Source of the DNA: Dehalococcoidia bacterium
GTDB lineage: Bacteria > Chloroflexota > Dehalococcoidia > SHYD01
Direction of reading: 5' to 3'
Assembly: GCA_965226775.1 (NCBI GenBank)
Contig: CBDDEI010000002.1
Coordinates: 653,638-717,637, forward strand
Length of the DNA stretch: 64,000 nucleotides
Below are positions 6,331 to 37,321 of this stretch, piece after piece (position 1 is the stretch's first letter; the number at the start of each line of letters is the position of its first letter). The position numbers and the translations under genes are program-made. The notes beneath the pieces are model-generated. The model did not search any database. It was given only the letters and a program-made list of their open reading frames with translations, and had not been told where the DNA came from.

Positions 6331-7217
6331 GTGGCAGCCACCCCCGCTCGTGGTGAGCTAGTCGAACCAGGAGCAGGTGCGCGGGCCTCTGTCATTGCGA
6401 GGACTCGCCCTAAGGCGAGGCCGTGGCAATCTGGGGCGGGGGAGGAGGCGTTGCCCGTAGCCTGCGCGTGGGACACTCCCCGACACCGTGCCTCCCCGCC
6501 TCCCCAGATTGCTTCGCTCCTGCGTCGCTCCTCGCAAAGACGGGCTCACCATGAGCGGAGCGGGCAGCGTACCCCCGCTCATGGTGAGCTAGTCGAACCA
6601 GGAGCAGGCGCTGGGCCTCTGTCGTTGCGAGGACTCACCCTAGGCGAGGCCGTGGCAATCTGGGGCGGGGAGGAGCGCCGTTGCCCGTTGGCCTGCGCGT
6701 GGGACTGCTCCCCGACACCGTGCCTCCCGGCCTCCCCAGATTCGCTTCGTCACTCCTGCGTCGCTCCTCGCATGGTTCGACGGGCTGCGGAGCGGAGCGG
6801 GCAGCCACCCCCGCTCATGGTGAGCTAGTCGAACCAGGAGCAGGCGCGCGGGCCTCTGTCGTTGCGAGGACTCGCCCTAGGCGAGGCCGTGGCAATCTGG
6901 GGCGGGGGAGGCGCCGTTGCCCGTTGGCCTGCGCGTGGGATGCTCCCCGACACCGTGCCTCCCCGCCTCCCCAGATTGCTTCGTCACTCCTGCGTCGCTC
7001 CTCGCAAAGACAGTGTGGAGCGGTATGGCAGCCACCCCCGCTCGTGGTGAGCTAGTCGAACCAGGAGCAGGACTCGCCCTGTAGGCGAGGCCGTGGCAAT
7101 CTGGGGCGGGGGAGGAGGCGTTGTCCGTTGGCCTGCGCGTGGGATGCTCCCCGACACCGTGCCTCACCCACCTCACCGATTGCTTCGTCGAACTCCTGCG
7201 TCGCTCCTCGCAAAGAC
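6331..7217. repeat. Tandem direct repeat, ~230-bp unit, about 4 copies (last copy internally deleted), with nested inverted repeats
   Basis: Unit starts (cccccgctcRtggtgagctagtcgaacc) at 6341, 6572, 6808 and 7035, giving spacings of 231, 236 and 227 bp. Within a unit, ttgcgaggactcg pairs with cgtcgctcctcgcaa, and gcaatctggggcgggggagg pairs with cctccccgcctccccagattgc. ORFs across the array shift frame between copies, so it is non-coding. Confidence 0.9.
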
Positions 7218-7359
7218 AGTGCTGGGGTGGTAGGGTGGCCAGCCCTCCGCAGCCAGCATCTTGCCTCCCGCACGCCTGCAGTGTAGAGTGCGTTGAGCAA
7301 CAGCTTCGGTGGTCGAGCCTGCCGAGAGCACCGAGGCTTAATGAAAAGATGCGTTTAGC

Positions 7360-16618: not shown

Positions 16619-17542
16619 CTAGGGTGTAGTAGCCGGAATGATGAGCTCTTCTCCCACCCTGAGGAGTGTGGGGTCCGTTATGTCGTTGGCAGCGACGATG
16701 GCCTCGACGGTCACCCCGAAGCTGGCCGCAATTGCGTTCACACTATCGCCAGCCTGCACCACGTAGCGCCGTGTGGTTAGGGTAGGTGTCGGCGCAAGCT
16801 GGGAAGCAGCCGTGGCCGTGGCCGGAATGATGAGCTCTTCTCCCACCCCGATGAGTGCGGGGTCTGTAATGTCGTTGGCATCGATGATGGCGTCGGCAGT
16901 CACCCCGAAGCTGGCCGCAATGGTGCTCAGATTATCGCCATCCTGCACCACGTAGCGTCGCGTGGTTCGGGTAGGTGTTGGCGCAAGCGCAGCCGTGGCC
17001 GGAATGATGAGCTCTGCGCCCACCCTAATGAGTGCGGGGTCTGCAATGTCGTTGGCAACGATGATGACCTCGACGGTCACCCCGAAGCTGGCCGCAATGG
17101 TGTTCAGATTATCGCCACTCTGCACCACGTAGCGCAGCGTGGTCGGGGTAGGTGTTGACGTAGGCGTAGGCAAGGGAGCAGGCGTGGCCGCGGCCGTAGG
17201 CGCAGCTGTAGCAGTGGCTGTAGCCGTAGCTGCCACGGTAGGCGCTGGTGTAGGCTCCACTGGCGTGACATCCAGTACGTTGGTTTCCGCCGCCGCCAGC
17301 GCCGCGAGGATCCGTGGCTCCGGTAAGGGAAACTGTGGCCAGGCCCACAGGTGCCAGCCGGCCAGCCCCAGTGCCACTACCAGCGTGCCCAGCACCCCAC
17401 GGTACACCAGTCCGGAGGGATAGCCGCCCGGCAGGTCCCGGCATCGGTCACAGCGGCCCTCTCCGTGACGCGCGCAGAACCACTGCTGGCAGCTTTTGCA
17501 CTGGTCTAAGGCTTCTTCAGAGCAGGCGTAGCAGTGCTGCAT
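16619..17542 (-). CDS. Zn-ribbon / single-TM / triple LysM-domain protein
   Basis: The N-terminal CxxC…CxxC ribbon is followed by a TM helix and three ~45-aa LysM repeats (RYVVQSGDNLNTIAASFGV…), also visible as DNA repeats. The start is chosen at the ATG with a GAGGT RBS (the ORF track extends to 17590). Confidence 0.7.
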   Translation of the reverse strand: MQHCYACSEEALDQCKSCQQWFCARHGEGRCDRCRDLPGGYPSGLVYRGVLGTLVVALGLAGWHLWAWPQFPLPEPRILAALAAAETNVLDVTPVEPTPAPTVAATATATATAAPTAAATPAPLPTPTSTPTPTTLRYVVQSGDNLNTIAASFGVTVEVIIVANDIADPALIRVGAELIIPATAALAPTPTRTTRRYVVQDGDNLSTIAASFGVTADAIIDANDITDPALIGVGEELIIPATATAASQLAPTPTLTTRRYVVQAGDSVNAIAASFGVTVEAIVAANDITDPTLLRVGEELIIPATTP

Positions 17543-17596
17543 TAGCGTATTACCTCGCCGCGTAGTAAGCGGTAAGATGTAACAAGACACGTCTTT

Positions 17597-33912: not shown

Positions 33913-35076
33913 CTAGCCCTCGATCCTATAGACCCACTTGGGAGTGCCGTTAGCGCTGTCCAGAGCGATCAATCGCTGGTTTAGCGGCACTACGTAGACG
34001 GTGGGAGCAGAGGCGTCCACTGCTGCGCCGGTGTAGATGGCCCCGTTCGGGTCGGTGGAGTAGGTCCACCGCTGCGTCCCTGTACTGGGATCCAGGCCGT
34101 ATACTCGGCCGTCCTGCGCCGGGATAATAAGCACGTCTCCGGAAATAGTAGGCGCGGCGCTCACGGGCCCCGCAGTCTTGAAGGGCTCGGCCCAGCTCGG
34201 CTGCCCGGTTGAGGCGTCTACCGCGTACACTTCATTGGCAAGTGTCCCAAAGTACAGCGTGCCTTGCGCCAAGTAGGGGCTGCCCCAGACCCAGCTGTTG
34301 CTCTCGAACACCCAGCGCTGCGTTCCGCTAGAGGCGTCCACGGCGTAGAGCTTGTTGTCGCCGGAACCTATGTAGACGGTTCCGTTAGCGTACAGCGGCG
34401 CAGAAGCAATGGGCGCCTCCGACGTGAACTGCCATCTTAGCGATCCGTCGTCAACAGAAAGGGCGTACAGGCTGTGATCTAAGGACGCGATGTACGCGGT
34501 GCCTTCCAGGTCTAGCGTGACCCCTGCCCACACCTTGTGGTCCGTGCTGAAGCGCCACTTGAGTTGACCGTTGTTTGCGTCCAGTGCATACACATTGTGG
34601 TCTTCTGATCCGAAGATCACCGTCCCGCCGGCAACGGAGGGGGAACCGACTACACTGCCAATAGATCCCTCTACAGGGTACTCCCAGCGCTTTTGCCCGC
34701 TGGATGCATCTAAAGCCAGCATTTTCCCCTGACGCGGCCTCTCGTAGCTGTAGAGGCCGACGTAGAGGGAGCCATCGGAGAGGAGAGGCGTCGCGTATGC
34801 GGGGCCAAGGTTGCTGTCCTCATCTGTCGGATACTGCCACTCGCCGCTCGATATCGCAGGAAACGCATCGCCCCGGCTACGGGCGGTCAGGTCCAGTCCC
34901 ATCACCTTACCGTTGGAGCCTACAAAATAAACCTTGCTCGCGGAAATAGCCGCGCCGCCCCAACCTTGGGGTTGACCGGTGCAACCGGCTACCAGAAGCG
35001 CTGCTATAAGCCAAAGGCCTAGCAGAAAGTGTGGTCTCTTGTGGTGAAGAGAGTGTGTTTGCGTATCAGTCGCCAT
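33913..35076 (-). CDS. PQQ-like beta-propeller lipoprotein (BamB/YfgL-like repeat protein)
   Basis: Lipobox LVAGC. Repeated …LYA.D..SG..(R)W… propeller blades. Confidence 0.7.
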   Translation of the reverse strand: MATDTQTHSLHHKRPHFLLGLWLIAALLVAGCTGQPQGWGGAAISASKVYFVGSNGKVMGLDLTARSRGDAFPAISSGEWQYPTDEDSNLGPAYATPLLSDGSLYVGLYSYERPRQGKMLALDASSGQKRWEYPVEGSIGSVVGSPSVAGGTVIFGSEDHNVYALDANNGQLKWRFSTDHKVWAGVTLDLEGTAYIASLDHSLYALSVDDGSLRWQFTSEAPIASAPLYANGTVYIGSGDNKLYAVDASSGTQRWVFESNSWVWGSPYLAQGTLYFGTLANEVYAVDASTGQPSWAEPFKTAGPVSAAPTISGDVLIIPAQDGRVYGLDPSTGTQRWTYSTDPNGAIYTGAAVDASAPTVYVVPLNQRLIALDSANGTPKWVYRIEG

Positions 35077-35744: not shown

Positions 35745-35885
35745 TCAGGCCACTGAAAGGCGCTTCCGCCCCTGCCGGCGGCGAGCTTGTATAACGGCTC
35801 GTCCTCCGTGAGTGCGCATGCGAACCAGAAATCCTAGTGATCGCTTTCTGGGAATTCGTTTCGGTTGGTACGTTCGTTTTGGCAC
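35745..35885 (-). CDS. rpmH: 50S ribosomal protein L34
   Basis: Hand translation of the minus strand gives (M)[45 protein letters not shown], 46 aa, with a GTG start. Missed by the ORF track (under 60 aa). Classic rpmH-rnpA-yidD-yidC-jag order. Confidence 0.8.
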
Positions 35886-36049
35886 GGTGTCCTATCTTAG
35901 CTAAGGGGTAACATAGGGAATTATACCTAGACTTGGCCTTGAGCGTCAATTGAACTAGCCCTTTGGGAGTGGGTCACTTTGCGTTTTTGCTGGTGAATAC
36001 ACCCTCGCCCTGTGCTAGAAGAAGCCCGCCCGCCACAGGCAGGCGCCAG

Positions 36050-36262
36050 CCGCTCGTAGTGAGCTAGTCCAAGGGCTCCCGCTCATGGTGAGCTAGTCGA
36101 ATCCATGTGGATTCGCTCCTAGTGAGCCTGTCCAAGGTGTTCGTAGGGGCGGGTTTGAAACCCGCCCCTACTGTCAACTATCCAAGGGACTTCCGCTCGT
36201 GGTGAGCCTGTCCAAGGGCTTCCGCTCGTGGTGAGCTAGTCGAATCCATGAGCAGAAAGTTG
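36050..36262. repeat. Cluster of five ~30-bp degenerate direct repeats (cgctcRtRgtgagcYWgtcSaa…) with embedded palindromes. Same motif family as the 6331-7217 array
   Basis: Units at ~36051, 36080, 36112, 36196 and 36225. Perfect 12-bp-arm palindrome aggggcgggttt/aaacccgcccct at 36145-36169. Hairpin cgaatcca-tg-tggattcg at 36107-36124. Confidence 0.8.
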
Positions 36263-36376
36263 CCTGCCTTAGACTGACCCACTACTAACCCCTTGGATAG
36301 CTTGATCCTTCGGGACGTTTCCATTACAGTCTGTGTGCCTTGTTTAGTGGATAGTACCGGAATAGGAGGAGGTTAT

Positions 36377-37321
36377 ATGACAACCGAAGCAAAGACTCTT
36401 ACACTCAAGACCGCTATAGGCAGTTATGGGCACACCGCCGCCTTGAAAGACGGAAGCGTGACAGCCAAGGGTGTTCAGCTCGACCACATTGAAGTGACGC
36501 CGATTACGAGCGCCTTTCGTCGCATGTGCCGCGCCGTGGAGTTCGACATCTGTGAGATGGCAATCACCACTTATCTGGCGGCAAAGGCCCACAACTTGCC
36601 CTTTACGGCGCTGCCGGTCTTTCCCGTCAGAGCGTTCCATCACGGGGGCGTGATCTACAACCAGAAGTCTGGCATCAAGACCCCCAAGGACTTAGAGGGC
36701 CGCAGAGTGGGCGTACGCGCATACACGGTAACCACCGGCGTGTGGGTCAGGGGCGTCCTCGCCACCGAGTATGGGGTCGACCTGGACAAGGTCACCTGGG
36801 TGATTGTGGATGAAGAGCACGTGGCCGAATTCATGGTGCCTTCAAACGTGGTCATGGAGCAGAAACCGCTCATGGACATGCTTGTTGCCGGCGAGATTGA
36901 CGCCGCCATCGGCATTGGCGCTTCTGATTCACCAGACATCATGCCGCTGAACCCTGGCGCCCGTCAGGCCGAAGAGGAGTGGTACAAGCGCACGAACATC
37001 TTCCCTATCAACCACACGGTAGTGGTCAAGAACGATCTCCTAGCCGCAGAGCCGTGGCTGGCGGCGGAGCTCTATGCGGCCTTCAAAGAGGCCAAGGATG
37101 GCTTTGTGGCCCGCATCAGCGCCGAAGCAGATCCCTCTGCTGAGGCCAAAACGGTCCTGGCCCGGCGCGCGCTCGTCGGCCCAGACCCGTTGCCCTACGG
37201 TGTGGCGGCCAACAAGCCGGCTATCGATGCCATCATCCAGATGGCTACTGCTCAGCACATCCTCCCGCCTCAGTTTAGTGCGGAAGAGGTTTTTGTGCCC
37301 AGCACCGTGATGTTGGCCTAA
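36377..37321 (+). CDS. NMT1/THI5-like (SsuA/PhnD-type periplasmic-binding-fold) protein without signal peptide. This family is often annotated '4,5-dihydroxyphthalate decarboxylase'
   Basis: ATG at 36377 with a GGAGGAGG RBS (the ORF track starts upstream at 36293). 314 aa, no signal peptide. Confidence 0.55.
   Translation: MTTEAKTLTLKTAIGSYGHTAALKDGSVTAKGVQLDHIEVTPITSAFRRMCRAVEFDICEMAITTYLAAKAHNLPFTALPVFPVRAFHHGGVIYNQKSGIKTPKDLEGRRVGVRAYTVTTGVWVRGVLATEYGVDLDKVTWVIVDEEHVAEFMVPSNVVMEQKPLMDMLVAGEIDAAIGIGASDSPDIMPLNPGARQAEEEWYKRTNIFPINHTVVVKNDLLAAEPWLAAELYAAFKEAKDGFVARISAEADPSAEAKTVLARRALVGPDPLPYGVAANKPAIDAIIQMATAQHILPPQFSAEEVFVPSTVMLA

Follow-up and report, generated by a model that had tools for sequence, protein, structure and literature searches.

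A cluster of short repeats upstream of rpmH is probably a lineage-specific, BIME-like mosaic, built from units of a widespread hairpin family and one GTAG palindrome of a second family. The cluster lies in the 491-bp spacer (35886-36376) between the divergent rpmH and NMT1-like genes of the 64-kb stretch of Dehalococcoidia DNA analysed here (the window), in agreement with the intergenic location between rpmH and an unrelated gene given in the initial annotation. Our verdict is a REP/BIME-like mosaic whose hairpin repeats are selfish or neutral, junk-like in character. The locus itself is an ordinary REP/BIME-like patch, and the cross-phylum hairpin family to which its units belong is in neither Rfam nor the literature that was searched. 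A false lead is thereby removed, as the repeats adjoining rpmH are, on this probable reading, neither an origin nor an operator.

Architecture of the cluster upstream of rpmH

On the minus strand, rpmH (ribosomal protein L34, 35745-35885) is the first gene of an rpmH-rnpA-yidD-PQQ propeller-yidC-jag operon, for which the gene labels were taken from the Pfam labels of homologous loci. The gene for an NMT1/THI5-like substrate-binding protein (36377-37321, plus strand) diverges from it. A promoter for rpmH was identified at 35920-35949 on the minus strand (TTGACG-18-TATAAT, 11/12 match), leaving the cluster more than 100 nt further upstream. Between the two lies a terminator-like minus-strand hairpin at 36024-36044 (GCCTGCCTGTGGCGGGCGGGC followed by TTCTTCT), which points toward rpmH and has no minus-strand gene upstream of it. 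No promoter was found either between the cluster and the start codon of the NMT1-like gene or, on the minus strand, upstream of the cluster. Within the operon, the gene for a PQQ-type beta-propeller (33913-35076, minus strand) sits between yidD and yidC of an otherwise universal rpmH-rnpA-yidD-yidC-jag cluster, a position that is kept in relatives (L214, L215 and L216) down to 47% identity.

The cluster spans 36050-36255 and comprises five units of ~29 nt with the form CCGCTCRTRG-TGAGCYWGTCSAA, all on the same strand; decayed unit remnants push its end out to ~36300. A repeat finder placed the starts of the direct units at 36051, 36080, 36114, 36194 and 36223, with spacings of 29, 34, 80 and 29 nt, which confirms the five units of ~30 bp with a common module described in the initial annotation. 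It also reported units 1-2 and units 4-5 as a 58-nt two-copy repeat with 91% identity.

The model of the family hairpin is fitted by units 2 and 5 only, while units 1, 3 and 4 are half-units. Unit 5 (36222-36255, plus strand; CCGCTCGTGG-TGAGCTAGTCGAAT-CCATGAGCAG) is the sole nearly complete family hairpin of the cluster, with 9/10 stem pairs and a covariance-model match at 36217-36261 of 35.0 bits (E 1.4e-7). In unit 2 (36079-36107, plus strand; CCGCTCATGG-TGAGCTAGTCGAAT-CCATG) the stem is shortened, and the model match at 36074-36118 reaches 28.9 bits. Unit 1 (36050-36078, plus strand) runs from the 5' arm CCGCTCGTAG through the loop variant TGAGCTAGTCCAA into GGGCTC; its complementary 3' arm is absent and the covariance model does not match it. 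The same holds for the model match of the decayed half-unit 3 (36113-36142, plus strand; TCGCTCCTAG-TGAGCCTGTCCAA-GGTGTTC), while unit 4 (36193-36221, plus strand; CCGCTCGTGG-TGAGCCTGTCCAA-GGGCTT) gives a partial match of 10.2 bits. With TGG as its 5' and GGG as its 3' triplet, unit 4 is unable to fold on itself. More generally, units 1, 3 and 4 consist of a 5' arm and a loop (GTCCAA) that run into GGG and the next unit, and hence do not fold.

Further elements fill the region around these units. At 36176-36188 a truncated 3' remnant of another plus-strand unit is present, with CTATCCAAGGG at 36178-36188, and the junction of units 2 and 3 forms a small palindrome without strand (36098-36115, CGAATCCA-TG-TGGATTCG), whose 8-nt arms correspond to the 8-bp-arm hairpin reported earlier. 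One or two decayed units on the minus strand at 36267-36300 are complementary to units 1, 3 and 4 and could potentially close the cluster into a long hairpin. Successive units do not alternate in orientation; the five main units share one strand and only the remnants at 36267-36300 are inverted. Five units, remnants, the 18-nt palindrome and the GTAG palindrome are packed in a BIME-like manner inside 250 bp. The cluster region folds far better than shuffled sequence, with z-scores of -4.3 and -4.6, one for each strand; that both strands fold equally well is expected of DNA palindromes. A spurious 48-aa ORF at 36178-36324 arises from the repeat DNA.

The centre of the cluster is occupied by a perfect palindrome without strand (36143-36171, GTAGGGGCGGGTTT-G-AAACCCGCCCCTAC). 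Its arms of 14 nt around one central base are larger than the 12-bp arms claimed for the strong palindrome in the initial annotation. The GTAG head is paired with CTAC, so that the whole 29-mer is perfectly palindromic. According to PMC3733652, a GTAG head is typical of RAYT-associated REPs. Two near-identical copies of the palindrome were found within 8 kb of another Dehalococcoidia genome (L082), and the cluster is hence a mosaic of at least two repeat families. The central base (36157) reads G in the window but C at two loci of sister strains (L010 and L212), a difference to be expected from an inverted palindrome or from a point mutation.

Within the 64-kb window, the core GTGAGCYWGTCSAA occurs at 11 sites with at most one mismatch, where 0.18 are expected. 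The nine exact copies are all on the plus strand and all within 6353-7060 or 36059-36244, and the module is confined to two loci, the cluster in the rpmH spacer and a tandem array of 236-bp units at 6333-7240 (plus strand). Each unit of this array is headed by CCCCGCTCRTGG-TGAGCTAGTCGAA-CCAGGAGCAGG and continues, after the family hairpin module, with a long GC-rich inverted repeat (gtcattgcgagg...cctcgcaaagac); one inverted module copy is located at 6519-6563. Positions 36078-36101, in unit 2 of the cluster, are identical to 6574-6597 of the array at 24/24 bases, and the tail of unit 5, agtcgaatccatgagcag, resembles agtcgaaccaggagcagg of the 236-bp repeat, which bears out the ending shared with the long repeat that had been noted before. 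In a sensitive BLAST comparison (word size 7) only the module of 20-24 nt was common to cluster and array. As the similarity ends at the module, the two loci have a building block in common and are not copies of each other. The array also differs between strains: at this site, sister strains with identical RadC have 1-5 module copies in a spacer of 728-1316 bp, and the four 236-bp units of the window compare with five in the sister locus L001 (contig ERZ28763718 ctg124923). By the positions of RadC and RnpA, the window would span position 1 of this 2.35-Mb contig; it hence stems from another assembly or strain, or the record is circular and rotated.

Other repeats and genes in the window were observed alongside. 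The 236-bp array lies directly downstream of phage-like genes (SPP1-type portal, Mor-like), and a further hairpin with a related loop (7296-7335, cttcggtg-GTCGAGCCTGCCGAGA-gcaccgagg) closes the array spacer, immediately ahead of the tag (adenine glycosylase) gene. A 177-bp tandem repeat (16815-17157; 1.9 copies, 89% matches) lies inside the minus-strand ORF 16619-17590; since the counterparts of this ORF in sister loci contain LysM repeats, the tandem repeat is probably a repeated protein domain.

Sister loci were reached through protein look-ups with PQQ, the RnpA ORF and RadC. One sister contig (L010), whose PQQ protein is identical to that of the window, has 48 extra bp inside the cluster, corresponding to one full unit and one partial unit. 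In another (L212), a single base is deleted relative to the window, besides the C at the palindrome centre. The gain and loss of units between strains hence continues in this array. Two short-read contigs from independent assemblies (L011 and L213) both end inside unit 2 at ~36106, where repeats or strain heterogeneity evidently break the assembly. Unstable repeat DNA of this kind will break short-read assemblies and yield spurious ORFs.

The nearest relatives recovered have PQQ proteins that are 47-58% identical; one of them is labelled as a Dehalococcoidia MAG. Three relatives keep the gene order rpmH-rnpA-yidD-PQQ-yidC-jag as well as a promoter, TTGAC-N17/18-GTATAAT, directly upstream of rpmH. 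The repeat cluster upstream of rpmH is absent from all three, and their upstream neighbours differ, being a ferredoxin, a 219-aa membrane protein and a short hypothetical ORF. Conservation of the intergenic region in related genomes, which the initial annotation had considered, is therefore not observed among relatives with the same rpmH operon; instead, the absence identifies the cluster as a recent, lineage-specific addition.

The hairpin family beyond the window

When the flanks of module copies in other genomes were read, a canonical element emerged, CCGYTCRTGG-TGAGCYWGTCGAA-CCAYGARCGG, with a GC-rich stem of 10 bp and a conserved loop of 13 nt. The outer stem is often lengthened by complementary bases specific to the locus or lineage. 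The family unit has ~33 nt and is either solitary or accompanied by an inverted partner.

A scan with the exact pattern TCRTGGTGAGCYWGTCSAA, taking one genome per species, matched at least 120 stretches, and the module is present in at least 10 bacterial phyla as well as on plasmids and viral contigs. Matches were obtained in Chloroflexota (Dehalococcoidia, SAR202 and others), and in Devosia, Phyllobacterium, Altererythrobacter, Thiobacillus, Gallionella, Sulfuricella, Methylobacter, Crenothrix and Moraxella, with Alpha-, Beta- and Gammaproteobacteria represented. Further matches fell into Nitrospirota, Bacteroidota, Ignavibacteriota, Acidobacteriota, Elusimicrobia, Vulcanimicrobiota, Thermodesulfobacteriota and Myxococcota, including Desulfobulbaceae, Geobacteraceae and Anaeromyxobacter. 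The CTAG-loop variant, which dominates in the window, was found in 80 metagenome stretches, and the general module pattern in 60 stretches of IMG/VR viral contigs. The 33-nt consensus matched 14 plasmids, always under unannotated DNA; the carriers are Comamonas (6-9 copies per ~640 kb), Moraxella osloensis, Phyllobacterium, Nitratireductor and Methylobacter. Other genomes contain several copies per 8 kb in places, also in unannotated DNA. Devosia, Phyllobacterium, Moraxella, Comamonas and Methylobacter are cultured carriers, next to uncultured genomes of many phyla. The idea of a dispersed motif family put forward in the initial annotation thus holds for many phyla, plasmids and viral contigs, but not inside the 64-kb window, which holds two sites only.

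The hairpin is supported by covariation. Across 114 distinct copies, aligned without gaps, 65.8% of cells show the 3' flank paired with the 5' flank, compared to 27-41% when the flanks are slid against each other; the module search had left the 3' flank unconstrained. The stem covariation score of the 114 copies was 0.251 versus 0.168 for shuffled alignments, and none of 500 shuffles scored as high. Stem pairs 6-9 alternate among C-G, G-C, U-A and A-U. Stem pair 12/32 (alignment A3), by contrast with Watson-Crick pairing in 18 of 58 near-complete hairpins, is a G-T or A-C mismatch in 38. This mismatch looks like a preferred irregularity of the stem; it may be of consequence, and is reminiscent of the recognition irregularities in transposase-bound hairpins.

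Among 240 copies outside this species, 45% stand alone, while an inverted partner is located within 90 nt downstream in 34% and upstream in 20%. Inverted partners (128/240, 54%) compare with same-strand neighbours in 9/240 (~4%). The inner triplet of the inverted partner is usually CCC/GGG or TCC/GGA and not TGG/CCA; because of these differing triplets, the doublets are heterodimers able to fold into one long hairpin. Folding into one long hairpin is also described for REP dimers and REPINs (PMC3733652, PMC3116915).

In three Dehalococcoidia MAGs (L013, L060 and L063) and in the metagenome contigs L144, L145, L159, L163 and L181, the module is found inside longer, lineage-specific composite repeats. 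These recur nearly identically at several loci, one example being ggtcttttgattctgggatttggggcacaggccc plus the module plus ...cccttcgactagctcagggtgagcgg. Their sequence suggests larger MITE-like elements that may be built around the module.

Small palindromic repeats are usually lineage-specific. The family did not match any entry of Rfam 15 at the gathering score over the 64-kb window, and only at chance level with E up to 10 over 35850-36400. Literature searches by sequence and by peptides of the translated repeats returned chance primer matches only, and in two REP surveys a term search found neither TGAGC nor the loop sequence in print. Suspected similarities to hammerhead cores, tRNA T-loops, attC sites and the 5' end of tmRNA were dropped, as nothing was found in the Rfam scans, whose models cover ribozymes, tRNA and tmRNA.

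Several observations address whether the family acts at the level of DNA or RNA. In the 58 near-complete hairpins, G-T (51) and A-C (42) mismatches are equally common. Copies between co-directional genes are oriented 26:26 relative to the upstream gene, and the co-directional, convergent and divergent spacers holding copies (52:24:20) match the amount of such spacer DNA, both on the basis of crude ORF calls. Together these data point to a DNA-level palindrome without a directional RNA function. A role as terminator or mRNA stabiliser was rejected, given that neither an orientation bias nor an enrichment at gene 3' ends was seen with the crude gene calls; some copies in AT-rich genomes (Moraxella) are flanked by runs of A and T like bidirectional terminators, which is not general. 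A suspected link to small GIY-YIG nuclease genes was likewise discarded after a signature regex gave one match only over ~120 loci. An all-versus-all BLASTP comparison of ORFs within 1.5 kb of the copies (~120 loci) revealed generic families only (SDR, ABC ATPase), although such clustering of neighbours would miss a single-copy gene.

Origin of the cluster and competing explanations

We propose that a single unit, or a few, inserted into the spacer that separates the divergent promoters of rpmH and the NMT1-like gene. Replication slippage, or unequal recombination between direct repeats, would then have amplified them head-to-tail and scrambled them, with the outcome of five same-strand units, three of them without a 3' arm, plus remnants. 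As head-to-tail packing is rare in the family (~4%), the array looks like a local tandem amplification, and tandem amplification of a rearranged unit would produce half-units such as 1, 3 and 4. A sequence-specific function for the flanking genes appears to be lacking. Any effect may be generic, by formation of cruciforms or hairpins or by absorption of supercoils between the divergent promoters. For the spread of the family between loci and phyla, our best guess, made by analogy with REP/RAYT, is a trans-acting enzyme. No pair of a filled and an empty site was recovered, so that transposition is proposed by analogy only, and over ~120 loci neither a mobilising enzyme nor a gene family recurring beside the copies came to light.

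That the 13-nt loop is kept from phylum to phylum is not readily explained if the DNA is purely neutral, and hints at a recognised function. The unit might then belong to an undescribed, nearly pan-bacterial superfamily of DNA hairpins read by a conserved trans-acting factor, an idea which we regard as tentative and rather doubtful. It would account for a loop, TGAGC-NN-GTCGAA, that stays the same in at least 10 phyla, on plasmids and in phage-like contigs, next to a covarying stem. If true, the factor would read the loop of extruded or single-stranded DNA and could be a host protein found universally, or else a transposase or nuclease of wide distribution. The element would be a horizontally moving 'universal REP' and the rpmH-proximal cluster a decayed landing site. 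A cross-phylum family would also be a handle for finding the propagator or reader of such elements.

Explanations that give the cluster a role at this locus were weighed against the mosaic. The five units could form an operator array through which a DNA-binding regulator, a nucleoid protein or gyrase acts on the divergent promoters of rpmH and the NMT1-like gene. E. coli BIMEs do bind IHF and gyrase, the repeats lie between two divergent genes with four of the five units at a regular 29-nt spacing, and something may recognise a loop that is conserved far beyond drift. However, the cluster is missing from the three relatives that keep operon and promoter, the unit number varies between strains, 3/5 units are truncated and the rpmH promoter is more than 100 nt away; the module moreover adjoins unrelated genes in many phyla, without a recurrent neighbour. 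Such an array is therefore unlikely, and the protein-binding repeat family suggested in the initial annotation is unsupported. Still somewhat less probable is a structured RNA, either a 5' leader of the NMT1-like gene or a minus-strand small RNA ending at the terminator-like hairpin (36044-36024). The folding z-scores, the position of that hairpin just past the cluster on the minus strand and the fact that no promoter was found between the cluster and the start codon of the NMT1-like gene would fit an RNA. Against it stand the lack of any Rfam match even at E up to 10, NMT1 motif included, the equal folding of both strands as for DNA palindromes, the family's lack of strand bias relative to genes and of an excess of G-U over A-C, the missing cluster in relatives, and the missing minus-strand promoter upstream of the cluster.

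The initial annotation had offered two further readings, neither of which is supported. Descent of the cluster from a second, now eroded copy of the 236-bp tandem array (6333-7240) would agree with the identical module at both sites and the similar tail after GTCGAA, but beyond the 20-24-nt module nothing of the 236-bp unit is found in the spacer at word size 7, and in hundreds of other genomes the module stands by itself as an element; we consider this reading very improbable. The proposal of recombination scars at a rearranged origin, in which the repeats are remnants of an origin once adjoining rpmH from which dnaA moved away, is barely tenable. It draws on the fact that rpmH adjoins dnaA and oriC in many bacteria, on the divergence of the genes from the spacer and on a cumulative GC skew that is near its minimum over ~28-50 kb; yet the skew curve over the 64 kb is shallow and flat in this range with two minima, and 64 kb is short for placing an origin. 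A DnaA box (TTATCCACA-like) with at most one mismatch does not occur in 35886-36376, and 13 DnaA-box-like sites are scattered over the window without a cluster in the spacer. The G+C content is 0.56-0.59 in 4-kb windows over the spacer, with no AT-rich dip at such resolution, and DnaA is not among the ten window ORFs scanned against Pfam. The three relatives are also without dnaA upstream of rpmH; that they have three different neighbours there argues against a recent rearrangement specific to this genome. In other genomes, finally, the repeat is a generic element located anywhere.

Relation to known repeat systems

With the DnaA-box clusters of oriC, the cluster has in common only the position next to rpmH and the nature of a repeat cluster; DnaA boxes, an AT-rich unwinding element and a neighbouring dnaA or dnaN are all missing from it. 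The dRS3/Correia arrays of Neisseria and the rhizobial RIMEs are closer in organisation, as unrelated short repeats are interleaved in one intergenic region and vary between strains. Their sequences are other ones, however, and they are linked to phage integration or IS targeting, which is unseen here.

The palindrome at the centre of the cluster resembles the description of GTAG-23 of Thermomicrobium roseum (Di Nocera et al. 2013, PMC3733652) in its GTAG start, its GC-richness and its occurrence in a Chloroflexota genome. There the tag is described as unpaired, whereas it is paired with CTAC in the cluster. The REPIN/RAYT system (Bertels and Rainey; PMC3116915) resembles the family in that many copies of the latter are inverted doublets foldable into one hairpin. 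It differs in that no gene recurs beside the family copies, and in that REPIN-RAYT pairs are inherited vertically within lineages, whereas the module is found across phyla and on plasmids.

The likeness to REP/BIME elements of Enterobacteria and Pseudomonas is the most extensive: both are short, GC-rich, imperfect intergenic palindromes clustered in mosaics with other motifs, inverted dimers of two different unit types predominate in the wider family, and the copy number varies between strains. The stem-loop unit of 20-40 bp that characterises REP-type elements is found in the canonical unit and, in the window, in units 2 and 5 only. With regard to the predominance of inverted dimers, the family conforms and the window cluster is exceptional; its units are arranged head-to-tail, which is rare or absent in REP families according to PMC3733652. 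The main unit starts with CCGYTCR and is without a GTAG or CGTC tag. REPs are specific to a species or genus and have an unpaired GTAG head, whereas in the present family the loop is kept in at least 10 phyla and the variation lies in the stem.
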